Source: Thermoplasmata archaeon (GTDB lineage Archaea; Thermoplasmatota; Thermoplasmata; RBG-16-68-12). From it: DNA of 58,680 bases. The DNA is taken from the NCBI GenBank assembly GCA_041483635.1, contig JBGPGA010000002.1, positions 1 to 58,680 on the forward strand, read 5' to 3'. Below the pieces are notes generated by a model. It made no database searches, was not told where the DNA came from, and saw only the letters and a list, made by a program, of their open reading frames with translations. Below are positions 2,673-54,091 of the stretch, piece by piece (positions within the stretch are counted from its first letter, which is position 1; each line of letters starts with the position of its first letter). Both the position numbers and the translations under genes were made by a program.

Positions 2673-2683
2673 CGCCTTTTTGC

Positions 2684-5890: not shown

Positions 5891-5898
5891 GTTTAAAT
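5891..5898 (+). promoter_or_regulatory. TATA-like element GTTTAAAT
   Basis: 33 nt upstream of ATG 5924 (FNR-like gene). Confidence 0.5.
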
Positions 5899-5923
5899 CG
5901 GACCTGAGGGTGCCGAGGTTTGC

Positions 5924-6718: not shown

Positions 6719-6722
6719 AGCC

Positions 6723-28110: not shown

Positions 28111-31100
28111 ATGTTACATAAGGTAAAGAAAGCCGCCACGAAGGACGAGGTCCTCGGCCTCCTCCAACCCCTCCTCCGCGACTGGTTCACGGCCAAGTTC
28201 GCGGGTCTCACCGAGCCGCAGTCCTATGCGGTGCCCCTCATCCACGCGCGGAAGAACGTCCTCGTGTCCTCGCCCACAGGCAGCGGGAAGACCCTCACCG
28301 CGTTCCTGTCCGTGATCAACGAGCTCTACGCGAAGCAGCTCCGTGGCGAGCTGGAGAACCGGATCTACTGCCTCTACGTCTCGCCGCTCAAGGCGCTCGC
28401 GAACGACATCAACCGCAACCTCGAGGAGCCGCTGCGGGAGATCACGGAACTCGCGACGAAGGAGGCCCAGCCGCTGCCCGAGATCCGCGTCGCGGTCCGG
28501 AGCGGCGACACGTCCCCCCAGGAACGCCAGAAGCAGGTGCGCCGGCCGCCCCACATCTTCATCACGACGCCGGAGAGCCTGGCGATCATCCTGAGCACCC
28601 CGAAGTTCCGGGAGGCCTTCTCGAAGGTCGAGTGGGTCATCATCGACGAGATCCACGAGCTCTGCTCGTCGAAGCGCGGCGCCCTCCTGTCCGTCGGGCT
28701 CGAGCGCCTCCGCGAGCAGACGGGGCGGGACTTCGTGCGGATCGGGCTGAGCGCCACGATCGCGCCGATCGAGGAGGAGGCGAAGTTCCTCGCGGGATAC
28801 GAGGACGGCAAGGTGCGGGACATGCACATCGTCGAGGTCGACACCCGCAAGTCCCTCGACCTGTCGGTCCTGTGCCCCGTGCGGGACATGACCGCGGTCC
28901 CCATGGACGTGGCCAACGCCCGCATGTACGACCTGCTGAGCGACCTGATCGACCAGCACCGCACGACCCTCATCTTCACGAACACCCGCAGCGGGACGGA
29001 GCATGTCTCCTTCAAGCTCAAGGAGCGCGGGGTCGAGGACCTTGAGGCCCACCACGGCTCCCTGTCGAAGGTCACCCGTCTCGATGTCGAGCAGAAGCTG
29101 AAGGACGGCCAGCTCAAGGCCGCCGTCTCGTCGACCTCCCTCGAACTCGGGATTGACATCGGCTACATCGACCTCGTCGTGCAGATCGGATCACCCAAGA
29201 GCGTGGCAAAAGGCCTCCAGCGGATCGGTCGCGCGGGTCATGCGTACGGGGAGACGGCGAAGGGCCGCATGATCGCCTTCGAGCCCTGGGACCTGATCGA
29301 GTGCGCGACCCTCTCCAAGGCGGCGTACGACGGCCGCATCGACCGCGTCGACATCCCGAAGAGTCCCTTGGACGTCCTCGCGCAGGCCCTCGTCGCGATG
29401 TCCCTCGAGAAGCGCTGGGGTGTGGACGAGGCCTACGCGCTCGTGAAGCGGTCCTCGTCCTTCCACGACCTCTCGAAGAAGGACTTCCTCGCCGTCATCG
29501 ACTACCTCTCGTCCCGCAACCCGGACATCAAGGTCTTCGCGAAGATCTGGTTCGACGAGGCCGAAGGACGGTTCGGCAAGAAGAAAGGCACCCGGATGAT
29601 CTACTACACCAACGTCGGCACGATCCCCGAGGAGGGTACGTACCACGTCTACTCGGAGCGGGGGACGCCCCTAGGCGAGCTGAGCGAGCGGTTCGTGGAG
29701 TACCTGAGTCCCGGCGACGTGTTCGTCCTCGGCGGCCGCACGTACCAGTTCGCGCGGGCCCGCGGGACCTCCGTCTATGTCAAGGACGCCTCGGGCCGCC
29801 GGCCCACCGTGCCCTCTTGGACCGGGGAGATGCTTCCGCGGTCCTTCGATCTCTCCGTCGCGGTGGGGAGATTCCGGCGGGACCTGGCCACGAAGATCGA
29901 CAAGGACGGGGAGAAGGCCGCGCGGGAATGGCTCGCGCTGGAGTACCGCGTCGACGAAGGGTCCGCGAACTCCCTCGTCTCCTACGTCCAGGAGCAGCGC
30001 GCCCTCCTCCCGGACCTGCCGACGGACGAGCAGGTGCTCCTGGAGGGCTTCATCGACGAGAAGGGCAACCGGAACATCGTCTTCCACTTCCCCTTCGGCC
30101 GTCGCGTGAACGACGCCCTGAGCCGCGCGTACGCGTTCGCGATCACGGAGAAGCAGCACACGAACGTGCGCGTGAGCGTGACGGATGACAACTTCATGCT
30201 GACGGTCCCGAAGCGCATCGAGATCCACGACCTCGTGAAGCTCGTTTCGAGCGAGGACCTGGAGGACATGCTGCGCAGGGCGATCAAGAACACAGAATTG
30301 TTCAAGCAGCGCTTCCGGCACTGCGCGACACGGTCCTTCATGGTCCTGCGGAACTACAAGGGCCGCGAGGTCTCGATCGGCCGCCAGCAACTTCGCTCCC
30401 AGCGCGTCCTCGACTGGCTCCACGAGATCGAGGACTTCCCCGTGATCAAGGAGACGTACAACGAGATCCTCCATGCGGTCATGGACCTCGATCATGCGCG
30501 CGAGGTCCTCCGGGCCATCGAGGCGGGCACGATCCGCGTCAAGGAGAGCGACTTCACCGGCCTCCCGTCGCCCTTCGCCCACAATGTGGTCCTCCAGGGC
30601 GTCTCCGACCTCGTCCTCATGGAGGACCGGTCCGCGTTGCTCCGCGAGCTGCATCGCAAGGTCCTCGAGCGCGTCATGCCGGCGGACCAGATCACCGCGA
30701 TCCAGTTCAAGCCGGCCGAGGTCCAGGAGTACTTCCGCAAGAAACTCCCGCGGATCGCCCGCAAGGAGGACATCCTCTCCTTCCTCGACCGCGTCGGGGA
30801 CGCAAACCTCCTGCAGCAGAAGGGGCGCAACCCGCTGGAGCACGCGACCGCGTCCTTCCCGGACGTCCGCAAGTGGTCCGGGATGCTCATGGACGAGGGC
30901 CTCGTCGAGAGCGTCTGGACGCCGCAGGGGGTGCACTGGGCCCCGAAGGAGCTCGTGCCCACGTACGCCGCGGTCTACGCGCAGCGCTCGCGCCTGCGCC
31001 CTCCCGAGGAGAAGCTCCTCAAACTCATCCAGGAGAAGCCGCGGACCCACAAGGAGCTCGCGCGCCTCTCGAAGCTCGAGAAGGACGATTTGAACGAGGC

Positions 31101-38760: not shown

Positions 38761-39249
38761 TCAGGTCATGAACACGACCGCGGCGAGGCAGGCCCCGTAG
38801 TGGTCCATCGGCGTGCTGAGTTCCTCGATCTTGTACTCGAGATGGCGGAACTTGATGCCGCGCATCTTCGCCATCTCCCCCATCTTCCACTCGAGGACCT
38901 CCTGGAGGGACTTCTTCGTGCCGTGCATGTGGCCTTCCGCGACATAGCCGCCGAGGCCGTCGTCGCGGAACCCGTATGCGATCCCTGCGGAGATCGTCTC
39001 GCCCTCGCCGCCCCTCTGCTGCGCGAGCACGCAGAAGGTGATCGCGCCCATCGGGAGATCGCGAATCCGCACCTGCCGGATCCCGACCGGGAGGACGGAG
39101 GAGACGGAGACGATGTTCTGCTCGGACAGGCCCGCATTCTGGAGGGCCTCGTCGAACGCGTTCAGGTCGGAGACCTTGGAAACGGCCTTCCCTGACGTGA
39201 CGAAAAACTTCGTTGGGACGGGCAACATGGTGCTCTGCGGACGCGGCAC
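38761..39249 (-). CDS. pdaD: Pyruvoyl-dependent arginine decarboxylase
   Basis: LNAFDEALQNAGLSEQNIVSVSSVLP (self-cleavage Ser-Ser site) and GYVAEGHMHG. GTG start at 39249; alternative ATG at 39228. Confidence 0.85.
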   Translation of the reverse strand: MPRPQSTMLPVPTKFFVTSGKAVSKVSDLNAFDEALQNAGLSEQNIVSVSSVLPVGIRQVRIRDLPMGAITFCVLAQQRGGEGETISAGIAYGFRDDGLGGYVAEGHMHGTKKSLQEVLEWKMGEMAKMRGIKFRHLEYKIEELSTPMDHYGACLAAVVFMT

Positions 39250-39308
39250 ATTGTCGCGCTCGGCTTAAGCGTTTGCAGAGGGGCGGCGAGAATCTTCACA
39301 GCTCGCAC

Positions 39309-39345
39309 TGATTATTTTTATCTTCTGTCATATATTTATAATGGC
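39309..39345. other. Extremely AT-rich block (about 12% GC over 32 nt)
   Basis: TGATTATTTTTATCTTCTGTCATATATTTATAATGG lies between the rimI stop (39346) and the pdaD start. It is the most AT-rich stretch I saw in the window. Confidence 0.6.
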
Positions 39346-39810
39346 CTAGGCGAGCGAACCGGACGTGTCCGTTCCCTCCGCGATGGAGCGCATCATGCTG
39401 TAGGCGTCCTCGCCCCAGGAGTAGTATCCGTAGAGCACGCCGTCGGTCCGGTATCCGAGGCCGCGGTAGAACTCGATGGCGGCGTAGTTGCGGGTGCTGA
39501 CCTCGAGCCTTACCCGGACGCATGCCCGCCTCCGTGCTTCCGCCTCTGCGGCTTGCATCATCTTGGTCCCGAGTCCGTGACGGCGATGTTCGGGCATCGT
39601 GGCGACGGACAGGACGCGGCAGAACGGTCCCTCGAAGAGGAGCATGATCGCTCCATCCAGCCGCCCGCCATCCGTTTCCTCGACCAGCGTCAGGGCGCGC
39701 TCGTTCCGCAGAATCCAGTCCAGGTGGTCTCGACGGAAGCGGCGCTCCTTGAAGCACGCGGTCTCGATCCGATAGATTCCGTCAAGGTCCTTCGGCGTGG
39801 CGGGTCGCAT
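39346..39810 (-). CDS. rimI: GNAT acetyltransferase, RimI-like
   Basis: MRPATPKDLDGIYRIETACF, VATMPEHRRHGLGTKMM and AIEFYRGLGY. Internal ATG 39810 of track ORF 39346-39966. Confidence 0.75.
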   Translation of the reverse strand: MRPATPKDLDGIYRIETACFKERRFRRDHLDWILRNERALTLVEETDGGRLDGAIMLLFEGPFCRVLSVATMPEHRRHGLGTKMMQAAEAEARRRACVRVRLEVSTRNYAAIEFYRGLGYRTDGVLYGYYSWGEDAYSMMRSIAEGTDTSGSLA

Positions 39811-43562: not shown

Positions 43563-44132
43563 TCACGACTTCCGGCGCGTATCGAGCCACGTCAGGCCGA
43601 GAGCGATCCCGCCCGCCAGGTATCCGAGGAGCGCGACGCCCATCAGAGCGGCGATGGGAAGCGTGGCGGGTCCCAAGAAGTTCGTGTGGATGTAACCGAC
43701 CGTCTGTCCGCCGCCACCGAGGTTTGTGGGAAGATACGCCGCTCCGGCCAGGAATCCTTCGTAGGTCATCAGGAGGGACGCGGCCGCCGCTCCCGCGCCG
43801 CCGAGCACGAGGTGGATCCAAGCCGCCCAGATCCTCCAGCCACGGACGGCTCCTTCCAAGGTGACCTCGAGCTGTTGGTAGAAGAGCGCGCTGAGTCCGA
43901 GACCCGCGATTCCCACGAGCATGTACGAGAGGAGACCCATGACGAACCATGTGCCCGGCCCTCCTCCCGCGACAATCCGGGACGACGCAGGACCGAGCAG
44001 GTAATTCGGCGGGGTTAGACCCGCCAAGATGTTGCCCAGGAGGAGGACCGCGACGACGAGCCACGCGATGCCTCCGAGGATGAACGTCGCGGTCGTGAAT
44101 CGAATCGCCCAAGTGCTTTTCGCCGCTGCCAT
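43563..44132 (-). CDS. Polytopic membrane protein, paralogue A (unknown family)
   Basis: About 5 TM helices. Shares GTWF..G.L.Y..V...G.GLSALFY..LEV and W.HL.LG blocks with the next gene. Confidence 0.55.
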   Translation of the reverse strand: MAAAKSTWAIRFTTATFILGGIAWLVVAVLLLGNILAGLTPPNYLLGPASSRIVAGGGPGTWFVMGLLSYMLVGIAGLGLSALFYQQLEVTLEGAVRGWRIWAAWIHLVLGGAGAAAASLLMTYEGFLAGAAYLPTNLGGGGQTVGYIHTNFLGPATLPIAALMGVALLGYLAGGIALGLTWLDTRRKS

Positions 44133-44263
44133 CACAATCCCCTGAGGCCGAACAGCCGGCGGCCCTTAACCTTTCCCCTGGCCGTCGTGTGAATTGGGCA
44201 GCATAGGGCCACCTCGAACGCACAAACGGGCAGCTCGCAGGGTCTCGACGCGAAAGCGAATCA

Positions 44264-44830
44264 TTAAGGAAGCGAGCCCGGCGGACCCTTGGCCCGACGG
44301 AACTGGATCGCGTACCCGATCCCGCCGAGGAAGGGACCGAGGGAGCCGACGATGAACAGGGTCGAGATGATGGGCACCATGGGCCCGAGGATCTGATCAT
44401 GGACGCACTGCGGGATCTCCTGGGGAGGCGGACAGCTCAAGGTCGGAGCGAACAGCTGAGATCCGCCTACATATCCCCCATACATGAGGAGCCCCAGGGC
44501 CGCTCCGATGATGATGTTGCCCAGGAGCAAGTGGCCCCACGCCAGGTACTGAAGCCCGCCCGTGTAGCGGCGCCCCATGACGACCTCGAGGTAGTGGTAG
44601 AACAGGGCGCTCAGCCCCGATCCAACCACGGGCACGATGAGGTACCCGAGGTACCCGACCGTGAACCAGGTCCCGGCGGAGCCCTGGGCCACGATGTTCT
44701 CGGGCGACACGAACCCGGAGAAGGGGAAGTCCGCGTAGAGCAGGACCTCGGTGAGGACGAACATGATCGTGCCCTGGATCAGGGCCGCGGCGATGAAACG
44801 CCGGGCCCACACGCTTCCGGACCCCTCCAT
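44264..44830 (-). CDS. Polytopic membrane protein, paralogue B (unknown family)
   Basis: Internal ATG 44830 of the track ORF. Shares the conserved blocks of 43563-44132. Confidence 0.55.
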   Translation of the reverse strand: MEGSGSVWARRFIAAALIQGTIMFVLTEVLLYADFPFSGFVSPENIVAQGSAGTWFTVGYLGYLIVPVVGSGLSALFYHYLEVVMGRRYTGGLQYLAWGHLLLGNIIIGAALGLLMYGGYVGGSQLFAPTLSCPPPQEIPQCVHDQILGPMVPIISTLFIVGSLGPFLGGIGYAIQFRRAKGPPGSLP

Positions 44831-44950
44831 GATGAACCTCGGAAGGCCAACGGCCCTGGGTGGCAAAAACCTTCCCGTGCCCCGAAGCGGACGCGCGGCC
44901 CCGTGTAGCACTCATCCGGCTCGACCTGGCTCCTCGGCTCCGGCCGTGTC

Positions 44951-45139
44951 TCAGAACGGAAGGGGGCCTGCCTCGTCCGTCGGCCGGATGATCCATCGAT
45001 GGCCATGCTCGGCGATGACGATGCTGCCGCAGTCGGGGCACCGATAGAACAACGCGCCCCCGTCGTGCCCCAGCTCCTCGATCGTCTCGTGCAGGCACGT
45101 TCGCGGGTCGACGGGGACCTCGATCAGAATCGAGGACAC
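44951..45139 (-). CDS. Small putative zinc-binding protein
   Basis: 62 aa with C-x-H ... CPDC. GTG start. No homology recognised. Confidence 0.35.
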   Translation of the reverse strand: MSSILIEVPVDPRTCLHETIEELGHDGGALFYRCPDCGSIVIAEHGHRWIIRPTDEAGPLPF

Positions 45140-45242
45140 GCTCTGCTCTCCACGACCATTGCGTCGTCCCCCGCCCTAATGCCTTGGGTAAGTACGCTTC
45201 GGCGGAGTTCGGGGAGTCTATGCAGGTCGTAACGCCGTAAAG

Positions 45243-45250
45243 GCTTTATC
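45243..45250 (+). promoter_or_regulatory. TATA-like element GCTTTATC
   Basis: 33 nt upstream of ATG 45276. Confidence 0.45.
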
Positions 45251-45275
45251 GCGTCCGCCCGGATACCGCGGCCCC

Positions 45276-45758
45276 ATGGCGGTCCTCTCGGACGCGGGCA
45301 TCCTCGAGTTCCGCGCGAAGGGCGAGTTGTCCATCGAGCCCTTCACGGAAGCGCATCTCACGCCGAACGGGTACGATGTGAGCATCGAGGAGGTCTTCCT
45401 GCCCTCGGTCGATCAGCGGGTCCGGTCCGGCGTGGCCCACGTGCCCTCCCTGGCGCGGTTCGCCGTGAGCACGCGCGAGACGGTGACGCTGGGTCGGCGT
45501 GTCGCCGGGCAGATCTGGCTCCGGACCACCTGGGCACGTCGGGGCGTCGTGGCCTCGTTAGGCATGATCGACGCCGGGTTCTCCGGCACGCTCACGTTCG
45601 GCGCGCTGAACGCGTCGGATACGACCCTCGATCTCCCCGTTGGAGAACGGTTCGCCCAGATCGTCTTCCATCTCCTCGAATCCCCCGCGGCCGAGACGTA
45701 CGAGCGACGTTCGGGCACGTACCAGGGACAGCGCGGCGTCACCCTGGACCGACCGTGA
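45276..45758 (+). CDS. dCTP deaminase/dUTPase-family protein (probably archaeal dUTP diphosphatase)
   Basis: LTPNGYDVSI, GMIDAGFSGTLTF and ERFAQIVF. 160 aa. TATA GCTTTATC lies 33 nt upstream of the ATG. Confidence 0.8.
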   Translation: MAVLSDAGILEFRAKGELSIEPFTEAHLTPNGYDVSIEEVFLPSVDQRVRSGVAHVPSLARFAVSTRETVTLGRRVAGQIWLRTTWARRGVVASLGMIDAGFSGTLTFGALNASDTTLDLPVGERFAQIVFHLLESPAAETYERRSGTYQGQRGVTLDRP

Positions 45759-46761
45759 CGTCGAAGGCGACGTGGTGCTGGGTCGGCGAGTACGCGCGCA
45801 CGGGGTGCACGGTTATGCCAACGAGGTGTCGCCCGCCCTTCGTCACGACTTCCCGGATCGCCTGCTCGCGGTCCTCGCGGTCCGCGTCCTCCATGATCGC
45901 ATACACATGGACCGTGCCTCGCTCGTTGAGGGCCCGGAGGGCATCCGGGAAGAACTCCATCGCCGAGTGCGGCAGGTCGAGGATGACCCGATCGAGGGGG
46001 GCGTTCTCCCGCAGGACCTCGCGCGCGTCCCCCCCCTGCGTCTCGACCCGGGCCGCGCGGTTCGCGGCGACGTTCTGCCGGAGGAAGTCCACCGCAACGG
46101 AATTCGCATCCGAGGCAACAACCCGCGACGGCCGTCGCCGGCGCGCGATGAGGATCGCGTACGGTCCCACCCCGGCAAAGGGATCCCCGACGGCCTCTCC
46201 CGGGCGGACCTGGTCCGCGACCCGCGCCCGCTCGCTCCCGAGGCGCGGGCTGAAGTAGGCCCGGGCGATGTCTACCCGGTATCGGAGGCCGTACTCCGTG
46301 TGGACCGTCGTCGTGCGCGGTTCGCCCGCCAAGACCTCGAGCTTCCGAATGCGGAACTCTCCCGTGACCCCGTGATCTTGGGCGACCACCTTCACGTTCC
46401 GGTTCGACTGCAGGATTGCACGGGCGATCTCCGCCCGGTGCGGCACGAGCGGCTCGGGGATCTTGAGGATCGCGATGTCCCCGATCACGTCGAAGGCGGT
46501 CGGGAGCTGGGGTCGCAACGCCTCCGGTACCCGGGCGACATCCTTGTAGCTCCGGATCGGCGTGAACGCCTCCTCGAAATCCCGCTGCTCCGTCGGCCAG
46601 CCCATGTCGACGTTTCCCGTGGTCGGCAACCGCAGATGGCCCGCCGTCTCCTGGACCTTGAGGTGCCTCTGGAGCACGCCACGTTCCTTCAGGACGCGGC
46701 GGATCTCCTCGCCCCGTTCCCGCGGCACGACGACGCACCAGGATCGCACGCTCGCGGCCAT
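45739..46761 (-). CDS. trm5: tRNA (guanine37-N1)-methyltransferase Trm5
   Basis: FDVIGDIAILKIPE, ARAYFSPRLGSER, DPFAGVGPYAI and ILDLPHSA. Start at ATG 46761 leaves a 77-nt divergent promoter region with dph5. The track start 46812 would leave 26 nt. Confidence 0.8.
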   Translation of the reverse strand: MAASVRSWCVVVPRERGEEIRRVLKERGVLQRHLKVQETAGHLRLPTTGNVDMGWPTEQRDFEEAFTPIRSYKDVARVPEALRPQLPTAFDVIGDIAILKIPEPLVPHRAEIARAILQSNRNVKVVAQDHGVTGEFRIRKLEVLAGEPRTTTVHTEYGLRYRVDIARAYFSPRLGSERARVADQVRPGEAVGDPFAGVGPYAILIARRRRPSRVVASDANSVAVDFLRQNVAANRAARVETQGGDAREVLRENAPLDRVILDLPHSAMEFFPDALRALNERGTVHVYAIMEDADREDREQAIREVVTKGGRHLVGITVHPVRAYSPTQHHVAFDVTVGPG

Positions 46762-46838
46762 GCGGGGGAGTGTATGAAGAACTTTCGTGGACGCGTCGAG
46801 GCCAACCTTCATGGACCCGCGGGCGGTTCGGTCGCAGG

Positions 46839-47618
46839 ATGGCGGAGCTGGTCTTCGTCGGGCTCGGTCTCCATGACGAGAAGGGCATCACCCTTCGAGG
46901 GCTCGAGGAGACTCGCGCCGCCGATCTCGTCTTCGCGGAGTTCTACACCTCCGCTCTCCTGGGCACGCGGATCGAAGCCGTCGAAGCCCTCGTCGGAAAG
47001 CCGATTCGCCGGCTGACGAGGGAACAGGTGGAGGGCGGGACCGAGGTGATCGAGGCGGCCAAGGACCGCCAAGTGGCGTTCCTGGTGGCCGGGGATCCGA
47101 TGATCGCGACGACCCACGTCGACCTCCGGCTCCGCGCCGCGGCCGCGGGGATTCCCACGCGGGTCGTCCACGGCGTGTCGATCCTCGGGGCCGCGGCCGG
47201 CACCCTCGGGCTGCAGGCCTACAAGTTCGGACGGACGACCACCGTCCCGTTCCCCTCGCCCGGGTTCCAGGTCACGAGCCCCCTCGATCCGATTGTGGAG
47301 AACCGGCGCGCCGGATTGCACACGCTCGTCCTCCTGGACCTCCGCGAGGACGGCACGTTCCTGGACCCGAAGGACGCGCTCCGGTCCCTGCTGGCCATGG
47401 CCGCGACCACGGGCACGCAGGAGTTCGGGCCTCACACGGTGGTCTGCATCCTCAGCCGGGTCGGGTCTCCCGGCGTGAAGGTGGAGACGGGCGCGGTGTT
47501 CCAGCTTCTGGAGCGGGACCTCGGGCCGCCGTTGCATTGCTTCGTCGTGCCGGGTAGCCTGCACTTCCTCGAACGGGAGGCGCTCGTGGCCTTCGCCGGC
47601 GCGGCTCACGATCTCTGA
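46839..47618 (+). CDS. dph5: Diphthine synthase
   Basis: LVFVGLGLHDEKGITLRGLE, AEFYTS, VAFLVAGDPMIATTH and YKFGRTTTVPF. Confidence 0.9.
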   Translation: MAELVFVGLGLHDEKGITLRGLEETRAADLVFAEFYTSALLGTRIEAVEALVGKPIRRLTREQVEGGTEVIEAAKDRQVAFLVAGDPMIATTHVDLRLRAAAAGIPTRVVHGVSILGAAAGTLGLQAYKFGRTTTVPFPSPGFQVTSPLDPIVENRRAGLHTLVLLDLREDGTFLDPKDALRSLLAMAATTGTQEFGPHTVVCILSRVGSPGVKVETGAVFQLLERDLGPPLHCFVVPGSLHFLEREALVAFAGAAHDL

Positions 47619-48367
47619 GACGGGTGCCTCGCGAGCTCCGCGAGATGCTCGACCTGCCAGAACGTGATCTCCAGGCTGTACGTGTGCTTGAACTCGTGGC
47701 CACCCCACCGGTGGCGGAGCTCGCGCATGACCTGGCGGTGGACATCCTCCGGCGTGCTCCATTGCGACGAGAAGGATCGCTGCTCCAGCTCCTCGAGGAT
47801 CGAATCGGCGGGGACGACGTCCTCGAACGGTCCGACGGGCATGACGAGGTCCGGGGGCAGGATGTCGGGCAAGTCCTTCTCATGCAGCCCCGGGGCGGAC
47901 CACGTGTAGCCCGCTTCCCCCGCCAAGTGGTCGTATTCCCGGTGCAGGTTCGTCGTGCGGCCGGACCGCTCGATGATGCTGAAGTAGCTGTCGCGGGTCA
48001 CGCGCACGATCTCCAGGAGAACCTCGCGCCAGTCCGGGACGAGGTGGAGCACGTGGTTCGAGGTGGAGAGGTCGAACGCCCGCGCCGTGAAGGGCAGGCG
48101 CGCCCCGTCCGCGAGGACGACGTTACGGAGGCCCTTGCCGAGCCCGAGCTCAACCATCTTGTGCGAGATGTCCACGCCGACGACGTCGAGCCCGCTCTTC
48201 TGAAGGGGCACCGCGTATCGTCCCGTGCCTACTCCGACCTCGAGGACCTTCTTGGTCAGAAGCTGGTCCACGAGGCTCCCGAGGACGCGGGACATGACTT
48301 TCGGCGGGAGCGCGCGGGTCTCGTCATAGATCGCCGCGACGCGGTCGAACGAGAGGCGGACGGGCAT
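47606..48367 (-). CDS. Class I SAM-dependent methyltransferase
   Basis: VLEVGVGTGRYAVPL (motif I) and VVGVDIS. ATG 48367 lies 33 nt from TATA CTTTTATC (minus). Convergently overlaps dph5 by 13 nt. Confidence 0.75.
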   Translation of the reverse strand: MPVRLSFDRVAAIYDETRALPPKVMSRVLGSLVDQLLTKKVLEVGVGTGRYAVPLQKSGLDVVGVDISHKMVELGLGKGLRNVVLADGARLPFTARAFDLSTSNHVLHLVPDWREVLLEIVRVTRDSYFSIIERSGRTTNLHREYDHLAGEAGYTWSAPGLHEKDLPDILPPDLVMPVGPFEDVVPADSILEELEQRSFSSQWSTPEDVHRQVMRELRHRWGGHEFKHTYSLEITFWQVEHLAELARHPSQRS

Positions 48368-48392
48368 GCGCGGCTCCGCAAAGGCACGCTGC

Positions 48393-48400
48393 GATAAAAG
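48393..48400. promoter_or_regulatory. TATA element GATAAAAG / CTTTTATC, possibly bidirectional
   Basis: 33 nt from the methyltransferase ATG (48367, minus). Read on the plus strand it would start a transcript near 48425, running into the structured leader of the HCD-motif gene. Confidence 0.45.
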
Positions 48401-48437
48401 GGTGCCTCGGCGAGGGCGTGACGCCGCCTCCCGAAGA

Positions 48438-48447
48438 CGATAGTTTC
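48438..48447 (+). repeat. CGATAGTTTC, left copy of a 10-mer that recurs at 50126-50135
   Basis: Exact match. A second 10-mer, CCCCCCCGTC, follows on both sides (48492-48501 and 50141-50150). Confidence 0.6.
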
Positions 48448-48513
48448 GGGCCCGGGGCGCGAGTGAAACCCGTCTGACGAAGCGAATCCGTCCCCCCCGT
48501 CCGTTCCCCTCAT

Positions 48514-48533
48514 GCCCGCCCTTCGGGGCGGGC
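48514..48533 (+). other. Perfect 8-bp GC hairpin with UUCG tetraloop
   Basis: GCCCGCCC-TTCG-GGGCGGGC. Its 3' arm can alternatively pair (GGGCAC 48530-48535) with GTGCCC 48549-48554. Confidence 0.6.
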
Positions 48534-48581
48534 ACCCTCCCGGTTCCTGTGCCCCAGCCGCAACGCGGGTAATGTCGTGGT

Positions 48582-48596
48582 GGTATCATGCATACC
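48582..48596 (+). promoter_or_regulatory. Inverted repeat GGTAT-CATGC-ATACC (candidate operator)
   Basis: 5-nt arms around a 5-nt core containing ATGCAT. Ends 41 nt upstream of ATG 48637. Confidence 0.3.
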
Positions 48597-48636
48597 TTGC
48601 CCTGAAGTATCGGGATGGACGAAAGCGGAGCGGGGG

Positions 48637-49197
48637 ATGAAAACGCCACCTCATTGCGATACCTTAGATGGACCCGTGGTTGTGGCCGCGAAGAAAGCCT
48701 TGGAGACGGGGGATGTGAAGCTCATCCTTCCCTTTGCTCCGAAGCAGGCAGAGACTGAGATCACAGAGGCCTTCGAACGGACGTTGCAGGTCCGGAAGCA
48801 GGGCAAGCAAGCCCAAGACCTAGCGGACTACTGGTTCTTCGAAACCGTGGTCCGGCTACATCGAGAAGGCGAAGGCGCGCCCTACACAGGCCTCAAGCCA
48901 GCCGGCTTGGACTGGGGACCCTTGATCCCCAGGGCGGAAAAGGCCATCGAAAAGGGGGACCCGAAAGAAGTTGTCGACTTCATGGCCGACGCAGTGAAGG
49001 AAGAGCTGGAACAGCGATTCCACCATGCGACGGAGCTGAAGAAGCACGCGAAAGAAAGCGTGGAGGCCGCACGCGCGTACACGAGCGCCATGCTGGGCTT
49101 CGAACTCTACTCCCACCACCTGTATGCGAACATCACGGGCGGCGGAGAGCACGGAGAGAAGGGTCACGGAAGGGGTGCAGGGGAACACGAGCACTAG
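48637..49197 (+). CDS. Uncharacterised HCDTLDGPVV-motif protein with His-rich C-terminal tail
   Basis: 186 aa. MKTPPHCDTLDGPVV, YWFFETVVRLHREGEGAPYTGLKPAG, and C-terminal GGGEHGEKGHGRGAGEHEH. ATG preceded by GGAGCGGGGG. Atypically low GC and many A/T-ending codons. Confidence 0.65.
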   Translation: MKTPPHCDTLDGPVVVAAKKALETGDVKLILPFAPKQAETEITEAFERTLQVRKQGKQAQDLADYWFFETVVRLHREGEGAPYTGLKPAGLDWGPLIPRAEKAIEKGDPKEVVDFMADAVKEELEQRFHHATELKKHAKESVEAARAYTSAMLGFELYSHHLYANITGGGEHGEKGHGRGAGEHEH

Positions 49198-49318
49198 CCA
49201 CCCTTCGCGCGCAGAAGAGCTTCGATGAGCGAGTGGTCCGGGAGACAGACTGGTACGACTGCGTCGTCCAAGTGGACACGTCCGACGGCGCGGTGCAACC
49301 GACGCGCAAGAGGAGGTC

Positions 49319-49864
49319 TCACTCATTCCGGGATTGAGCCTCGCGTCTGGGTTTCGCGTGGGTATCAATGGCCCACGGAAAGATGCGTCCTTCCTCGGCC
49401 TTGAAATGCTCGTCTAAGAGCGCCTCGAGGGCGGCAAGTTTCCGTGACGCTTCTTCAGCGGATGTCGGCAGAGAATCGATGATGTCGCCGACGAGCTTGC
49501 GGACCTGACGGTGCTGTTGCATGGTTCGAATCGCCTCTCCCGCACCTTCCCTTCCGTGGGCGTCGATGAGGACTTTGAGCACACGAGCCTCCTCATCCAC
49601 GACGTGCCGGTCCAGCGTGTCCTTCAGCTCTCGCAGCGAAGCGATTCCGGCGGCCTTGTCCTGCCTCTCCAGAGCCGTTCCAATCACGCGCAATCGGTGC
49701 CGTATGTCTCCATGAGTCTTAACGAGGGACGACACGAACTCTTCAAAAGGCTCCCCTCCGCTCTCGGTAACCACCGTCTCGAGGAGTGCGCCGCACTCCG
49801 AGCAGCGTGTGGTTTCTATTTCGACCTCCCGCCCGCATCCCCTACATTGGTGTTTCTCGCTCAT
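49319..49864 (-). CDS. Zinc-ribbon - hemerythrin-like fusion protein
   Basis: 181 aa. CRGCG..x9..CSECG is followed by a four-helix region with HGDIRHR, DRHVVDEE, QQHRQV and DEHFKAEE ligand-like motifs. Low GC, like its neighbour. Confidence 0.6.
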   Translation of the reverse strand: MSEKHQCRGCGREVEIETTRCSECGALLETVVTESGGEPFEEFVSSLVKTHGDIRHRLRVIGTALERQDKAAGIASLRELKDTLDRHVVDEEARVLKVLIDAHGREGAGEAIRTMQQHRQVRKLVGDIIDSLPTSAEEASRKLAALEALLDEHFKAEEGRIFPWAIDTHAKPRREAQSRNE

Positions 49865-49930
49865 CGACCCATCGCACCAGCGGGCCCGACAGTTGACGTG
49901 TCGACGTATCAATGCTACGCCGAAGGGGTT

Positions 49931-49946
49931 CGGATTTGTCCGGATT
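49931..49946 (+). repeat. CGGATT-TGTC-CGGATT direct-repeat element
   Basis: A hexamer repeated with a 10-bp period. Same architecture as 50072-50087. Confidence 0.55.
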
Positions 49947-50043
49947 CCAAGAATGCTCGTTCCCGAACTTCCATTTCAAAGGTTCTCTGAGTGCAGTCTA
50001 CCGCACCTCCCCGGAAATCGCTTCACCTCGTCCCGGGCCGAGG

Positions 50044-50087
50044 CGAACTCAGATCGAACTCAATCGAATCTCAGGTTTGTCCAGGTT
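50044..50087 (+). repeat. Tandem repeats CGAACTCAGAT / CGAACTCAAT / CGAATCTCAGG abutting CAGGTT-TGTC-CAGGTT
   Basis: Three imperfect 10-11-nt tandem units (50044-50075) run into a second N6-TGTC-N6 element (50072-50087), 78-121 nt upstream of the radA ATG. Confidence 0.55.
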
Positions 50088-50125
50088 CGCCAAAGCGCTG
50101 GACGGCCGAGTCGTCCGTGCAGGGC

Positions 50126-50150
50126 CGATAGTTTCACCCACCCCCCCGTC
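50126..50150 (+). repeat. CGATAGTTTC-ACCCA-CCCCCCCGTC, right-hand copy of both flanking 10-mers
   Basis: Exact matches to 48438-48447 and 48492-48501, in the same order and orientation. Confidence 0.6.
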
Positions 50151-50164
50151 TTATCCTTTTATGT

Positions 50165-51142
50165 ATGGCCAAGGATGGTAAGCAAGGTGACAAGGTGGCC
50201 ACCTCAGTGAAAACGGTGGAAGAGCTCCCGGGCGTCGGTCCCGCGACGGCGGAGAAGTTGCGGGAGGCCGGGTACTCGGATCTCATGAGCCTCGCCGTCG
50301 CGACCCCGGACACGGTTGCGGAGGCCACGGAGATCGGTGCCAACGTGGCGCAGAAGATCATCGCCGCCGCGCGCGAAGCAGTCGACGTGGGCGGCTTCGA
50401 GACCGGGGACGTGATCGCGGAGCGGCGGAAGTCCATCGCGAAGCTCACGACCTGCTCGAAGGCGTTCGACGAACTCCTCGGGGGCGGCCTGGAGACTCAG
50501 GCGATCACGGAATGCTACGGCGAGTTCGGATCGGGGAAGAGCCAGCTGGCTCATCAGCTCGCCGTGAACGTGACTCGCGGCGAGGACGAGGGCGGCCTGA
50601 ACGGCGACACGGTCTGGATCGACACGGAGTCGACCTTCCGGCCGGAGCGCATTCACCAGATGTCGGATGCCCTCGAGCTCGATTCGGAGACGATCCTCAA
50701 GCACATCCACGTCGCGCGGGCGTTCAACAGCCACCACCAGATGCTCCTCATGGAGAAGGCGCACGAGATGACGAAGGACTTTCCCGTTCGTCTCGTCGTG
50801 ATCGACTCCCTGACGGCCCACTTCCGCGCCGAGTACATCGGCCGCGGGGTGCTCGCGGAGCGCCAGCAGCTTCTGAACAAGCACATCCATGAGCTCATGC
50901 GCTTCGGCGACATCCACAACGCCGCGATTTACGTGACGAACCAGGTGGCGGCCAAGCCGGACGCGTTCTTCGGCGATCCGACGCGCCCCATCGGCGGGCA
51001 CATCGTCGGTCACAGCGCGACCTTCCGCGTGTACCTGCGCAAGTCGAAGGGAGGCAAGCGGATCGCGCGCCTGATCGACTCCCCGAACATGCCCGAGGCC
51101 GAGGCCGTCTTCTCGGTCTCCGAGGATGGCATCCGCGACTGA
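50165..51142 (+). CDS. radA: DNA repair and recombination protein RadA
   Basis: [17 protein letters not shown] (HhH), GEFGSGKSQ (Walker A), LVVIDSL (Walker B) and [12 protein letters not shown] consensus TATA (CCTTTTAT, 50155-50162) sits just 3 nt before ATG 50165, so the in-frame GTG 50195 is an alternative start. Confidence 0.9.
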
Positions 51143-51202
51143 GCCTGTCGTGTCAATTCGTGTCGGGACAGATTGAAGTAGCCTCAGGGGCGTCTACCAT
51201 CC

Positions 51203-52288
51203 GTGGACACGGGGCTCCTCCTCATTCCCGGTCCGGTCCCCCTCCATCCTCGGGTCCAGGAGGAACTCGCGAAGCCCGCCCTGCCCCACTACGGGGACGC
51301 GTGGATCAAGGCCTTCGCGGAGACCCAGGACCTGATGCGGTACGTCTGGGAGGCACCGAAGGGTCGGGTCTTTCCTCTCATGGGCCCGGGTCACGCGGGA
51401 CTCGAGTCCCTCGCCTTCACGTTCCTCCGCCCCCGCGACCGGGTCGTCGTCCTCGACAACGGTTTCTTCGGCGAGCGGCTCGCGGAGGTCCTGGCGACGC
51501 ACCGCCTTCGGGTGGAACGGGTGCGCTCCGAGTGGGGCGACGGGTTCGACATGGGAGGCCTGAAGAAGGCGCTCGGGAAGCCGGCGAAGGCCGTGGCCCT
51601 GATTCACAACGAAACCGCGACGGGGGTCACGAATCCCCTGGACGAGGTGGTCGAACTCGCGCACTCGAAGGGCGCCTTCGTCCTCGTCGATGCGGTCTCC
51701 TCCCTCGGCGGCATTCCGGTCCGCGGCGGGAAACTGGCGATCGATGCCGCCTTCAGCGCCTCGCAGAAGTGCCTCGCCGCACCCGCGGGGATCGCGCCCC
51801 TCCTGGTCTCCCCGTCCCTGTGGGAGGCGACGGACCCGAACGGAATCGACGGATGGTACCTGAACCTCTTCACATGGGACCGCTACGAGCGGGAGTGGGG
51901 CGACTGGCATCCGACTCCGACGACGATTTCCTCGAACCTGTTCTATGCGGTCCACCGCGCGCTCGCGCTCGTGAAGGAGGAGGGGCTCCCGCCCCGGTTC
52001 GAGCGCCACGCCCGGGCGGCGTCCCGGCTGCGGGACGGGCTCGTGGAGCTTGGCTTCCAGCCGGTTGCGTCCCCGCCGCTGCTCTCGAACACGGTCACGT
52101 GCATGCGCCCTCCCGCGCACGTCGATGCCGCGAGCTTCGCGAAGTGGCTCAAGGAGAGGCACAACATCTACATCTCCGGCGGCCTCGGGCCCCTGCGGGG
52201 CAAGACGATCCGCATCGGGACGATGGCCACGCAGGCCGAGCCTGAGATTGTGGATCGGTTCCTGGACGCGGCCAAGACTCTGGTGTGA
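51203..52288 (+). CDS. Class V aminotransferase (serine/alanine-glyoxylate aminotransferase-like)
   Basis: LLIPGPVPL, NETATGV, LVDAVSSLGG and SASQKCLAAPAG (PLP Lys). GTG start. Confidence 0.85.
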   Translation: MDTGLLLIPGPVPLHPRVQEELAKPALPHYGDAWIKAFAETQDLMRYVWEAPKGRVFPLMGPGHAGLESLAFTFLRPRDRVVVLDNGFFGERLAEVLATHRLRVERVRSEWGDGFDMGGLKKALGKPAKAVALIHNETATGVTNPLDEVVELAHSKGAFVLVDAVSSLGGIPVRGGKLAIDAAFSASQKCLAAPAGIAPLLVSPSLWEATDPNGIDGWYLNLFTWDRYEREWGDWHPTPTTISSNLFYAVHRALALVKEEGLPPRFERHARAASRLRDGLVELGFQPVASPPLLSNTVTCMRPPAHVDAASFAKWLKERHNIYISGGLGPLRGKTIRIGTMATQAEPEIVDRFLDAAKTLV

Positions 52289-52291
52289 CGC

Positions 52292-54091
52292 TCAGGTCTC
52301 GGGCAGATACGCCTCGAGCCAAGCGATCGCGCGATCGTGGAGACGGACGCGGTTCGAGGTCTTCCGCGGCGAATGGCCCTCGTCGGGGAACTCGAGGTAG
52401 TCGACCGTCTTCCCCATCCTCCGCATCTCCTCGACGATCTGCCGCGCCTCCGTCACGGGGCACCGCGGGTCGTGCGCGCCGCCCGTGAACAGGACGGGCA
52501 CGCGGATCCGATCGAGGTAGAAGAAGGGGGAATACTTGCGGAATCGCTCCGCGTCCGCCTCGGGCGTCCCCATCTTGTTGTGGTCGTACCTCTGCAGGTA
52601 TCCGCGCTCGTTCGACGTCGCGGTGAACCAGTTGAAGAAGCCCACCACGCTCACGCCGACGGTCCAGAGCTCGGGCGCCTGCTCGAGGCAATGGGCGACC
52701 GCATATCCTCCGTAGCTCGTCCCGATGATGCCGAGGCGCCCGGGCAGGCAGCGCCCGGTCCGGACGAGCCAGCGGCCGCCCGCGATGATGTCCTGCATGT
52801 CCGCGCCGCCGAGGTCGTGGTCGCTCGACTTCCGCCACGCGCGACCGTACCCGGTCCCCCCGCGGTAGTTCGGCGCGAGGACCGTGAAGCCCCGGGCCAC
52901 GAGGAACTGGTGACCCGCGTCCCACTCGTTCAGCTCCTGACTCTCCGGCCCGCCATGCGGATCGACGATCGCCGCGCCCCGGGATCGCGCCCTGGGCGGC
53001 TCGTACAGCCATGCGGGGATCCTGCGCCCGTCGAAGCTCCGATACGAGACGAGCTTCCCCCGCGCGAGTTCTCCGGCCGGGAGCTTCGTCCGGAGACTGT
53101 CCACGAGGGTCGTCCGCCGGTTCCCGCGTTGGAGGACGAGCCGGTAGGGCCGCAGGCTCGTCGAGTGCTGGTAGAACAGGGCTCGACCGTCCGAATGCCA
53201 TGCGGGTCGCGCCGCGACGCCTTCTGCCGGCGAAACGGGGCGGATCCGCCGACCGCGCGCGTCCGCGACCATGAGCCGGACGTTCCCGTCGTGGTTCTCG
53301 AGGAAGGCGAGGCGCGCTCCATCCGGGGACCACAGGGGCATCGACTTGTCCCGACGCGTCCGCACGGGCCAACGGACCGCTCTCGTCGTCAGATCGAGAA
53401 CGCCGACATCGAGGTGATCGTGCACATTCGAGATGAACGCAAGGTGGCGTCCGTCCGGGGAGAACGGCTGGGGCCGGCCCACATCCCCTGCGAGGACGCT
53501 CTCGCTGTCCGGCCAGGCGACGAGCTTCTCCATGCGACCGTCGAGGTCGACGATCCCGACCCAGTCCTCGTGTCCAACGCCCGCCGAGAAGGCGATTTGG
53601 CGTCCGTCCGGGCGCCATGCGATCTCGGACACAATGTCCTCGACGTGGGTGAGCTGCCTCGGCGTACCCCCATCGGCTCCGACCGCGAAGACGTTATCGC
53701 GGTCCCGATCCCGGGTCGAGATGAAGGCGATCGTCGCGCCGTCGGGCGACCATCGCGGGGACGCACTGTCCGCGGGGGTGTCCGTGAGCTTCCGCGCCGG
53801 CCCACCGCCCGAGGGCACGACGTAGATGTTGAAGTTCTCGTCCCCTTCAAAATCGGACTGGACCGCGATCCACTTTCCATCCGGCGAGAACTCCGGGTTC
53901 ATCACGGCCTGCTCCGAATTGAGGAGGACCCGCTCGCCCTTCCGTGCGACGTCCCGCACGTAGACGGTCCACTGTTCCCCCTGGTTCGCGGAGTACGCGA
54001 GACGCCGACCGTCCCGCGACACGTCGAAGTTGCCGAGCTGTCCGATCTTCCGGAGGAAGCGCCGGGGCGTGAAGGTGACCTTCCGCGTCAT
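52292..54091 (-). CDS. S9 family serine peptidase (acylaminoacyl-peptidase / prolyl oligopeptidase type) with N-terminal beta-propeller
   Basis: Repeated SPDG/WSPDG propeller motifs, GTSYGGY (GxSxGG nucleophile), and C-terminal D and H blocks. Start set at ATG 54091, downstream of the shared TATA. Confidence 0.85.
   Translation of the reverse strand: MTRKVTFTPRRFLRKIGQLGNFDVSRDGRRLAYSANQGEQWTVYVRDVARKGERVLLNSEQAVMNPEFSPDGKWIAVQSDFEGDENFNIYVVPSGGGPARKLTDTPADSASPRWSPDGATIAFISTRDRDRDNVFAVGADGGTPRQLTHVEDIVSEIAWRPDGRQIAFSAGVGHEDWVGIVDLDGRMEKLVAWPDSESVLAGDVGRPQPFSPDGRHLAFISNVHDHLDVGVLDLTTRAVRWPVRTRRDKSMPLWSPDGARLAFLENHDGNVRLMVADARGRRIRPVSPAEGVAARPAWHSDGRALFYQHSTSLRPYRLVLQRGNRRTTLVDSLRTKLPAGELARGKLVSYRSFDGRRIPAWLYEPPRARSRGAAIVDPHGGPESQELNEWDAGHQFLVARGFTVLAPNYRGGTGYGRAWRKSSDHDLGGADMQDIIAGGRWLVRTGRCLPGRLGIIGTSYGGYAVAHCLEQAPELWTVGVSVVGFFNWFTATSNERGYLQRYDHNKMGTPEADAERFRKYSPFFYLDRIRVPVLFTGGAHDPRCPVTEARQIVEEMRRMGKTVDYLEFPDEGHSPRKTSNRVRLHDRAIAWLEAYLPET

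Follow-up and report, generated by a model that had tools for sequence, protein, structure and literature searches.

Contig JBGPGA010000002.1 of an uncultured Thermoplasmata archaeon supplied the window analysed here, the whole 58,680-bp stretch (66.4% G+C), in which two convergent genes lie between the start of a methyltransferase (MTase) gene (48367) and the start of the recombinase gene radA (50165). One encodes a DUF6448 protein on the + strand, the other a zinc-ribbon hemerythrin on the − strand. An earlier note on this DNA, made from its letters, had described the convergent pair, and Pfam confirms it and gives both products their names. On balance, we read the 1,688 bp from 48448 to 50135 as an old, probably foreign accessory module that sits at the TATA-like box of radA, carries repeats derived from the radA promoter and recombines within its sub-clade. 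To judge from the related loci retrieved with RadA, the host group consists of uncultured, high-GC Thermoplasmata from soil and groundwater metagenomes.

The empty site and the boundaries of the insertion

A scan of GTDB genomes with RadA gave 80 loci, to which the window proteins were then mapped by tblastn (loci are numbered here with the prefix L). The backbone, Trm5-Dph5-MTase on one side and RadA-class V aminotransferase-S9 peptidase on the other, is conserved, with the MTase in synteny, in about 25 Thermoplasmata metagenome-assembled genomes (MAGs) or loci. In ten MAGs (L001, L004, L006, L016, L018, L019, L025, L027, L045 and L046) only 103-272 nt separate the MTase start from the RadA start, and the directly adjacent arrangement that the earlier note had proposed looking for in relatives is therefore real. 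L001, with RadA at 95% and MTase at 92% identity, has a spacer of 109 nt that ends …CCTCCCAAAGA-CGATAGTTTC-ACCCA-CCCCCCCGTC-TTACCCTCTTATGT-ATG. Both 10-mers of this junction, which recur at the two edges of the islet, occur here once and 5 nt apart, just as had been predicted for an empty site.

When the window edges are aligned to L001, homology on the left stops exactly after CGATAGTTTC, and homology on the right starts exactly with CGATAGTTTC. The islet-bearing locus L101, whose flanks are almost identical to those of L001, matches it at 59 of 61 positions on the left and 30 of 30 on the right, and the overlap is precisely the CGATAGTTTC 10-mer. The indel therefore measures 1,688 bp, counting one repeat copy (48448-50135). 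It is delimited by a direct repeat, CGATAGTTTC, which stands on both sides in the window and in single copy in L001. L001 and about nine more distant members have an empty site, whereas at least six other close lineages carry the islet. These results support the view that the two genes were added to the ancestral MTase|radA arrangement. The 10-bp direct repeat has the form of a target-site duplication; recombination at microhomology, or a larger duplication of the promoter, explains it equally well.

Two further observations concern this junction and radA itself. In one MAG (CAZJIP01), the contigs of L092 (1-136) and L039 (1-100) both break in or at the radA promoter (…CCGATAG and …GGCGATAGTTTCAC, respectively) and differ in upstream sequence; strains with different islet boundaries may have been assembled together. 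In five related MAGs, radA appears in two tblastn pieces (residues 1 to about 126 and 125-325) that lie about 1.5 kb apart at the P-loop region: L039 (98-475 and 2000-2602), L045 (4099-4476 and 6001-6603), L046 (2423-2800 and 4325-4927), L050 (257-634 and 2156-2758) and L072 (4093-4503 and 6001-6603). The interruption is most likely a RadA intein, which the window radA does not have.

The right-hand repeats and the predicted radA promoter

The 10-mer CGATAGTTTC stands at 48438-48447 and 50126-50135, and CCCCCCCGTC at 48492-48501 and 50141-50150. The window contains just two copies of each, all four on the + strand, so the colinear, same-strand arrangement reported earlier is verified. The accompanying caution, that a single repeated 10-mer is expected by chance and only the colinear pair is notable, is borne out by numbers. 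Among 200,000 random pairs of one 39-nt and one 269-nt window segment, one exact shared 10-mer is found in 2.5%, but two colinear, non-overlapping ones in only 12 pairs (6e-5).

The sequence (A)AAANCGATAGTTTCACNCACCYCCCYG..TTACC directly precedes radA in all of the roughly 25 family members, whether the islet is present or absent, and parts of the element (TTTCACNYACCCC) are recognisable even in L021-L024. A promoter survey of the window finds A/T-rich boxes at −35 to −27 of most start codons, typically AAAGG-CTTTATC, TTTAAAT or TTAAGT (examples lie upstream of the starts at 5924, 7562, 33971, 45276, 48367 and 54689), which suggests that the host archaeon makes mostly leaderless mRNAs. The radA box, GATAGTTTC, lies at −39 to −30 from the ATG, like the boxes of other window genes. 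Its sequence, GATAGTTT, is atypical. In islet-free relatives it is preceded by GAAAA or AAAGA, which we compared with a B recognition element, and is itself part of a GAAA-N-TTTC palindrome.

Position and conservation together mark 50126-50164 as the predicted radA core promoter. Because the right-hand 10-mers would be this ancestral promoter, kept with or without the islet, we do not take them for remnants of a mobile element. The attachment remnants of the earlier note become, on this side, a predicted promoter that about 25 relatives conserve regardless of the islet.

Putative promoter fragments upstream of DUF6448

The left end of the islet appears to carry three fragments of the radA promoter, in direct, inverted and direct orientation (Table 1). 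We regard the left copies as real homology to the promoter because the colinear 10-mer pair is so rare among random segments and because the match can be traced over a direct piece of 23 nt and an inverted piece of 16 nt. Every islet-bearing lineage conserves about 200 nt ahead of DUF6448, starting at the left CGATAGTTTC, whatever the left neighbour. The mean identity of this 5′ region is 77%, although synonymous divergence (dS) in coding sequence between the same loci reaches about 1. An nhmmer profile of the region, run against the window and 107 loci, matches only upstream of islet DUF6448 genes, once per locus, and finds no second copy of the left-end region in either. In L092, a decayed copy of the distal part persists though a GYD gene now separates it from DUF6448.

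The region contains three cores: CGATAGTTTC, G(G)GTGAAAC, which is the reverse complement of GTTTCACCC in the promoter, and a C-rich …CCCGTC… element. The first is kept at 8-10 of 10 positions in L101, L081, L083 and L094 despite their differing left neighbours. The core of the inverted copy, GGTGAAAC/GGGTGAAAC, is conserved in relatives, with GGGTGAAAC invariant in L101, L081 and L083 and the adjacent spacers less conserved. Identity between lineages is 0.55-1.0 (mostly at least 0.7) in the three cores, compared with 0.14-0.6 for most spacers. Since the cores are conserved more than the spacers, even where the left neighbour is not the MTase, the left fragments look selectively maintained rather than like neutral scars. 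The idea that the left repeats are remnant attachment or duplication scars thus gives way to one of conserved cores in a DUF6448 upstream region. It may be that the left copy serves as a distal second promoter, as an operator, or in both roles.

The first 45 nt or so inside the left repeat (48448-48490, aligned to L101 62-105) are only 43-52% identical between the window and L101, next to DUF6448 genes that are 94% identical, and it is L083 that this window segment resembles (GACGAAGCNAATCC), which makes the left junction a local mosaic. An open reading frame (ORF) running from the conserved ATGCCCGCC (48512-48640) was considered as a coding feature and rejected, as its frame is not kept in L081 or L083.

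The repeats could also be cis-elements above all, consisting of GATAGTTTC / GTTTCACCC half-sites and a C-rich element, through which one regulator would act on both radA and DUF6448; their identity would then be due to selection. We consider this possible though doubtful, and it is compatible with our account of how the islet arose. The cores are conserved and most of the spacers between them are not, and all lineages have an AGTTTC-N16/17-GTGAAAC inverted pair ahead of DUF6448. Conservation of the radA element spans about 39 nt, far beyond a TATA box and in part even in L021-L024, and its box falls within the palindrome of the islet-free relatives. Other cargo at the site, moreover, includes genes related to stress or DNA damage (HxlR regulators, an AlkZ-like glycosylase). 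Yet no other GATAGTTTCAC (up to two mismatches) occurs at a promoter position in the 58.7-kb window, its counts there are below chance, and neither it nor CCCCCCCGTC (up to one mismatch) is enriched in the window. The motifs are spaced by 5 nt at one site and by 44 nt at the other, leaving no common geometry, and DUF6448 has a proximal TATA-like box of its own at the canonical distance. The regulator would be a hypothetical one, and the comparison comprises only five distinct sequences.

Table 1. Features of the MTase-radA interval in window coordinates
Feature	Position	Strand	Description
Class I S-adenosylmethionine-dependent methyltransferase (MTase), left flank	47606..48367	-	Pfam Methyltransf_11/25; third-position G+C 0.84, host-like
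Predicted TATA-like box of the divergent MTase gene, TTTTATC on the - strand	48393..48400	-	About 30 nt from the MTase ATG; similar boxes precede most start codons of the window; also kept in L001, L081 and L101
Left CGATAGTTTC copy	48438..48447	+	Left indel boundary; first conserved core of the DUF6448 upstream region; homology to the empty L001 ends here
Conserved DUF6448 5′ region	48448..48636	+	Six-sequence alignment
Inverted partial radA promoter copy (GGGGCGCGAGTGAAAC vs GTTTCACCCACCCCCC)	48454..48469	+	Inverted repeat I9, 16 nt, 81% complementary
Left CCCCCCCGTC copy, extended to a direct radA promoter copy (…CGTC..TCC..T.ATG)	48492..48514	+	Repeat family D2; 23 nt, 74%; C-rich core conserved
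Hairpin GCCCGCCC-TTCG-GGGCGGGC	48514-48533	+	In the DUF6448 5′ region
Near-palindrome GGTATCATGCATAC	~48582-48595	+	In the DUF6448 5′ region
Proximal TATA-like box of DUF6448, CTGAAGTATCGG	48602-48613	+	Same box upstream of DUF6448 in the unrelated locus L100
DUF6448 family protein	48637..49197	+	186 aa; PF20046, E 4.9e-56
Spacer between the two convergent stop codons	49198..49318		80-96% identical to L081, L086, L087 and L101
Zn-ribbon (CxxC…CxxC) and hemerythrin-like four-helix-bundle protein	49319..49864	-	181 aa; PF01814, E 2.8e-12
Hemerythrin-radA divergent spacer	49865..50125		Fast-evolving, variable length; holds the hemerythrin promoter region
Predicted radA core promoter (CGATAGTTTCACCCACCCCCCCGTCTTATCCTTTTATGT)	50126..50164	+	Contains the right copies of both 10-mers and the TATA-like box
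RadA recombinase, right flank	50165..51142	+	Pfam Rad51, E 5.7e-86, plus HHH_5; third-position G+C 0.90

The hemerythrin promoter region has a conserved GTATCAA box near 49905. The spacer that holds it ranges from 125 to 258 nt among relatives and is 90-92% identical to those of L086, L087 and L101 but only 51% to that of L081. A perfect 12-nt inverted repeat (TCGATGAGCGAG / CTCGCTCATCGA, at 49222-49233 and 49856-49867) brackets the hemerythrin gene, with the start codon inside one arm; about 0.1 such pairs per 2 kb are expected by chance.

Composition of the islet

We compared the islet genes with 44 other well-defined window genes and with 758 same-length reference segments, the 58.7 kb of the window serving as host sequence. 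Both islet genes have a G+C content of 59.7%, against 66.7±2.3% in the 44 genes (z about −3.1). G+C at third codon positions (GC3) is 0.722 in DUF6448 (z −4.1) and 0.672 in the hemerythrin (z −5.4), against a reference of 0.873±0.037. Both values are under the first percentile of the reference segments (0.724); the hemerythrin value is also under their minimum (0.689), and the DUF6448 value is above it. The synonymous-codon log-likelihood gives z −2.7 for DUF6448 and −3.8 for the hemerythrin, and the strongest tetranucleotide outlier of the whole 58.7 kb is the 1.7-kb stretch 48601-50300 (z 3.8). G+C at first and second codon positions is normal in both genes, and the non-coding parts of the islet, at 0.57-0.68 G+C, are inside the intergenic norm of 0.63±0.04 (the hemerythrin-radA spacer has 0.585). 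The anomaly is therefore specific to third codon positions.

Calculated across the window, as had been recommended, the islet is thus the most deviant part in GC3 and tetranucleotides. The atypical composition first noticed by eye holds for these two measures, though averages over 300-500 nt, at 0.56-0.63, are less extreme than the 48-58% counted by hand on 60-nt lines.

Overall G+C of about 0.60 is also reached in other 500-nt windows (2300-6900, 39100-39600), and no gene outside the islet has a GC3 below 0.776. At 2300-6900 and 39100-39700, where 500-nt G+C is 0.60-0.62 and as low as in the islet, the genes have GC3 of 0.78-0.90, so that the low G+C there comes from first and second positions and spacers. 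The second-strongest tetranucleotide outlier (z about 2.3-2.6) is the interior, about 29800-32300, of an ORF of 1,802 aa at 28111-33519, whose GC3 is 0.93.

Low GC3 is not a property of the DUF6448 family, because copies resident in related high-GC genomes have GC3 of 0.89 and 0.94. Import from a lower-GC donor is therefore favoured. The islet DUF6448 is 79% identical to the first of these resident copies (L100) and 66% identical to the second, from a family member (L103). Its identity to the copy of a 41%-GC archaeon (L107) is 72%. Set against the 66% to the family member, this may hint at different histories of cargo and host, as may the disagreement of islet and flank dS within the sub-clade described below; the DUF6448 comparison is one of pairwise identities.

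Sharing and recombination among relatives

The same convergent pair stands directly upstream of radA in L081/82, L083-85, L086, L087, L092, L094-99 and L101, that is, in at least six other diverged lineages. Across them the hemerythrin retains 66-95% amino-acid identity, and dS reaches 1.7, which overturns the reading of the islet as a recent or private insertion. L086, L087 and L101 have islet proteins 93-95% identical to those of the window. In L081/L082 the identities are 96% for RadA, 89% for MTase, 92% for DUF6448 and 76% for the hemerythrin, with an extra AsnC-type gene on the left. L083-85 (RadA 92%, DUF6448 85%, hemerythrin 67%) have an unrelated 310-aa ORF as left neighbour, and L094-99 (DUF6448 90%, hemerythrin 66%) an ABC ATPase. 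L092 has a larger islet with GYD, a degraded CDF/ZT_dimer gene (CDF, cation diffusion facilitator) and a DUF6448 fragment. That different genes seem to follow identical DUF6448 genes in annotations was rejected as a gene-calling artefact, since tblastn finds the hemerythrin in all of them.

GC3 is low in every islet allele (0.67-0.81; in the L092 fragment it reaches 0.86) and higher in the flanks, at 0.87-0.92. Relatives with the same genes at the same place and host-like composition would have spoken against a foreign origin; the genes are indeed there, but their GC3 is still low.

In the radA tree, which represents one gene that itself recombines, the window groups with L081, L086 with L001, and L083 with L002. 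The islet-free genomes of the sub-clade, L001 (empty) and L002 (other cargo), are thus each sister to an islet-bearing lineage. The simplest history would be one gain in the sub-clade ancestor followed by loss or replacement.

Divergence within the islet disagrees with that of its flanks. Between the window and L086, dS is 0.115 for the hemerythrin and 0.47 for radA, and third-position identity is 0.92 and 0.75, respectively (Fisher p 5e-7); the hemerythrin value is even under the radA dS between L086 and L001 (0.187). Between the window and L081, dS is 0.25 for DUF6448, 0.77 for the hemerythrin, 0.42 for radA and 0.58 for the MTase; between the window and L083, it is 1.0 for DUF6448, 1.6 for the hemerythrin and 0.6-0.8 for the flanks. 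The high-identity tract shared with L086 and L101 is confined to about 48590-49900, with the flanks outside it. This discordance and the confined tract indicate recombination of the islet among relatives; its interior has therefore been exchanged between lineages that already carried it.

The pair might instead be native to the sub-clade and vertically inherited, with a gene-specific low GC3 (weak expression, relaxed codon selection) and with other genomes having lost it by deletion between the repeats. In keeping with this, the hemerythrin family is very small and its fetched members lie in related high-GC archaeal contigs, one of them, in L089, having a GC3 of 0.75 beside neighbours of 0.83-0.91; the islet is also old within the sub-clade, where both islet-free genomes are sisters of islet-bearing ones. 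We nevertheless judge it unlikely. The distant L004, L006, L016, L018, L027, L045 and L046 are empty with an intact promoter, which makes the empty state ancestral for the family. DUF6448 copies resident elsewhere in related genomes are host-like (GC3 0.89-0.94), islet GC3 rises hostward in L083, L094 and L092 (0.80-0.86) as amelioration predicts, and the divergence of islet and flanks is discordant.

The encoded proteins

The DUF6448 protein scores 189.2 bits against a PF20046 cut-off of 27 and covers profile positions 1-145 of 147. It has a near-invariant N-terminal PHCDTxDGPVV motif (PHCDTLDGPVV in the window) and a C-terminal tail rich in His and Gly. Invariant or near-invariant H, C, D and E residues are found in the family, among them further invariant His, Glu and Asp, together with an invariant Trp. 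More than 7,900 homologues exist, and those with a source name are archaeal (Thermoplasmata, Bathyarchaeia, Methanophagales, Freyarchaeota); the bacterial best matches that had been envisaged are thus replaced by archaeal ones. Family members are 65-79% identical across archaeal phyla. The AlphaFold2 model is all-alpha (mean predicted local distance difference test, pLDDT, 84). Sequence and fold searches of the PDB gave no informative match, an NCBIfam search likewise none, and a full-text literature search for DUF6448 no paper.

In L100 (6001-7480; a 67%-GC Thermoplasmata) and L107 (5001-6458; the 41%-GC archaeon), DUF6448 is followed directly by a CDF gene (Cation_efflux plus ZT_dimer), with NicO, FTR1, catalase-peroxidase and flavodiiron protein nearby. 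In L092, the degraded CDF (a ZT_dimer remnant) lies between DUF6448 and the hemerythrin, and the window islet may be a reduced form of a DUF6448-CDF-hemerythrin cassette.

The hemerythrin scores 47.6 bits against a PF01814 cut-off of 25.3, and its ligand columns H52, H88, E92, H119 and E159 are invariant. AlphaFold2 models it as a four-helix bundle to which a three-stranded zinc ribbon is joined at the N terminus (pLDDT 87). The best PDB fold is the DcrH hemerythrin (DcrH-Hr, PDB 2AVK/2AWC), with a template-modelling (TM) score of 0.72 normalised to the target and a Foldseek E of only 0.014. Homologues form only 15 clusters among 5.8 billion proteins, and a metagenome scan with the hemerythrin alignment recovered only 2 loci. 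One homologue, 68% identical, follows Nramp and cupin genes away from radA (L089 4337-6531; also L090 and L091). In L089 the GC3 of the cupin gene is 0.72.

From domains and gene neighbourhood, the products probably handle divalent metal and/or oxygen or oxidative stress. We give an even chance to the more specific proposal that DUF6448, as an accessory protein, binds divalent metal and is paired with a hemerythrin that senses iron or O2 or has a protective role.

A variable site without signs of mobility

Elsewhere in the family, the MTase|radA gap is filled by 0.86-3.7 kb of other DNA, in each case up to a point shortly before the radA box. The cargo is a set of cytochrome b, Rieske and EB_dh genes in L002, a PAP2 phosphatase in L003, DUF4386 with HxlR in L011, HxlR-type regulators in L014 and L072, and a 744-aa PKD protein in L010 and L015. 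An AlkZ-like glycosylase is present together with HTH_34, a membrane protein and HxlR in L007 and L009, and alone in L017, L020 and L023. These inserts have host-like composition and a single copy of the box GATAGTTTC. The divergent-promoter spacer is a permissive site, for which a site-specific mechanism is unneeded. We considered whether each cargo insertion duplicates a promoter-like element and rejected the idea: the MTase-AsnC spacer of L081 has no significant second copy (nhmmer finds nothing, and the Smith-Waterman score equals the shuffle mean).

A bolder proposal is that the radA promoter has repeatedly captured accessory genes and has also been copied as a regulatory module. In that case GATAGTTTC, the inverted GTTTCACCC and the C-rich box would be working operator or promoter elements that wire DUF6448 and the hemerythrin into the same putative control, responsive to damage or oxidative stress, as RadA. 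We rate this as quite improbable; if true, it would reveal an archaeal stress regulon not yet described and offer a first clue to the function of DUF6448.

It is likewise improbable that 48470-48640 forms a structured 5′ leader RNA, riboswitch-like or for translational control, with the left CGATAGTTTC as TATA box and the C-rich 10-mer sequestering the GGAGCGGGGG-AUG of DUF6448. The alignment fold and the single-sequence fold both weakly predict pairing of the C-rich segment with a G-rich stretch and the start codon. In the alignment, 93.5% of cells are paired, with six double-change pairs, the hairpin stem is kept as its loop varies, and the covariation score is 0.219 against 0.157 in shuffles (0 of 500), although these controls are biased, the structure being derived from the same six sequences. 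Folding energy, by contrast, is unremarkable (z −1.2; 24 of 200 shuffles fold as well), and an Rfam scan of 47000-51500 on both strands gives no match at E up to 1. Most genes look leaderless, and transcription from the proximal TATA-like box would leave the region untranscribed. The predicted RNA structure is thus suggestive, not significant.

Signs of mobility were sought throughout the islet. No terminal inverted repeats join 48448… with …50125; the sole inverted match that involves an end is I9, between the left end and the radA promoter, which lies beyond the insert. A tRNA search of 44000-54000 found none. The islet ORFs include no integrase or transposase, as had been noted before, and DUF6448 and the hemerythrin are the only ones with Pfam matches. 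In blastn, the whole islet has no match among plasmids and phages. Of the small horizontally acquired cassette first proposed, then, the insertion and the atypical composition stand, and the recent, private, att-flanked mobile cassette does not. Recent insertion into this genome by a small transposon-like, MITE-like (miniature inverted-repeat transposable element) or site-specific cassette, with the 10-mers as target-site duplication or att remnants, would suit the exact 10-bp boundary, its single copy in L001 and the atypical third positions, but is highly improbable given the same pair at the same site in at least six diverged lineages (dS up to 1.0-1.7), the missing terminal repeats, tRNA, integrase, transposase and plasmid or phage similarity, the occurrence of the element once per locus and only upstream of radA, and right-hand repeats that belong to the predicted ancestral radA promoter.

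Discussion

We propose that an accessory module entered the divergent MTase/radA promoter region in the ancestor of a high-GC soil and groundwater sub-clade of Thermoplasmata, as its phylogenetic distribution would imply. The insertion point would be the TATA-like box of the radA promoter, 10 bp of which (CGATAGTTTC) now stand on both sides. The inverted GTTTCACCC and the direct CCCCCCCGTC…ATG that follow closely within the left end would likewise derive from that promoter. The flanking repeats are then best seen as promoter copies made at or near insertion, not as attachment sites of a mobile element. They may have arisen by staggered-cut or microhomology insertion at CGATAGTTTC with templated junction pieces, or from a larger promoter duplication that was later interrupted. 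The conservation of cores over spacers suggests that the left copies have since been retained in the upstream control region of DUF6448.

GC3 points to a lower-GC archaeon as the probable source and to a module that is only partly ameliorated. The module is now a polymorphic, recombining part of the sub-clade gene pool; the discordance in dS shows that its interior was exchanged between lineages, and in some of these other genes have extended it. The absence of the islet from L001, with one repeat copy at the junction, may reflect loss by deletion between the repeats or an ancestral empty allele. The site presumably tolerates insertion because it lies between two divergent promoters, and quite different cargo is found there in other lineages.

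Several points weigh against this account. A simple target-site duplication explains the first 10-mer only; the second direct piece and the inverted piece need a larger duplication or template switching. No insertion mechanism can be named, given one copy per locus and no transposase, integrase or terminal inverted repeats, and gain and loss are not separable for L001, as the radA tree is that of a single recombining gene. The fetched and judgeable members of the tiny hemerythrin family are all in these Thermoplasmata, which fits a native low-GC3 gene better than a distant import, and the hemerythrin homologue in the other context of L089 is also low in GC3. The normal spread of GC3 is that of 44 genes from 58.7 kb of host genome. 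Conservation of the left cores could result from convergent selection for a shared regulator site instead of common origin. As to function, the assignment is a prediction from domains and gene neighbourhood.

The islet is a clean, well-delimited case of the small accessory modules that enter and leave archaeal genomes without dedicated mobility genes. It would illustrate how an insertion can split and duplicate a promoter, so that the resident radA and the incoming gene each keep a copy. Two uncharacterised families gain context from it, the archaea-wide, CDF-linked DUF6448 and the narrow Zn-ribbon hemerythrin. This is an ordinary type of genome variation and overturns nothing in current understanding; what is unusual is the conserved, apparently promoter-derived junction and the repeated use of the spacer upstream of radA.

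Among known systems, the islet resembles other small genomic islets in its atypical third-position composition, its presence or absence in close relatives, its exact 10-bp-repeat boundary and its place in a variable intergenic hot spot. It differs from them in having neither integrase or transposase nor a tRNA target, and in that its repeat is a piece of a neighbour's predicted core promoter; it is also old, common to several diverged lineages and recombining among them. Insertion sequence (IS) elements and MITEs make target-site duplications, for example of 9-12 bp in the IS4 family. As with these, a 10-bp direct duplication flanks a discrete insert here and the empty site has one copy. In contrast to them, the islet is single-copy and without terminal inverted repeats or transposase, its cargo is two ordinary genes with their own promoters, and one end has extra direct and inverted promoter fragments that would not be expected from a transposase cut.

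Junctions of the microhomology-mediated end joining (MMEJ), fork stalling and template switching (FoSTeS) and microhomology-mediated break-induced replication (MMBIR) types are insertions or deletions mediated by microhomology or template switching. The islet shares with them a short identical junction sequence and apparently templated nearby fragments in direct and inverted orientation, and precise deletion between the short repeats would regenerate the empty site. Unlike such junctions, this one is assigned by inference, after an ancient event and subsequent evolution under selection.

At the level of the proteins, the DUF6448 product agrees with PF20046 in its full-length match, conserved PHCDTxDGPVV motif and His-rich tail. 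Members of that family often stand directly upstream of CDF transporters, whereas the window copy adjoins the hemerythrin and radA, with no transporter. The hemerythrin shares the four-helix bundle, the Pfam HHE domain and the invariant His/Glu columns with HHE proteins and DcrH-Hr, and is set apart by its N-terminal CxxC…CxxC zinc ribbon, its very narrow distribution and iron/O2 binding that is, for this protein, a prediction.

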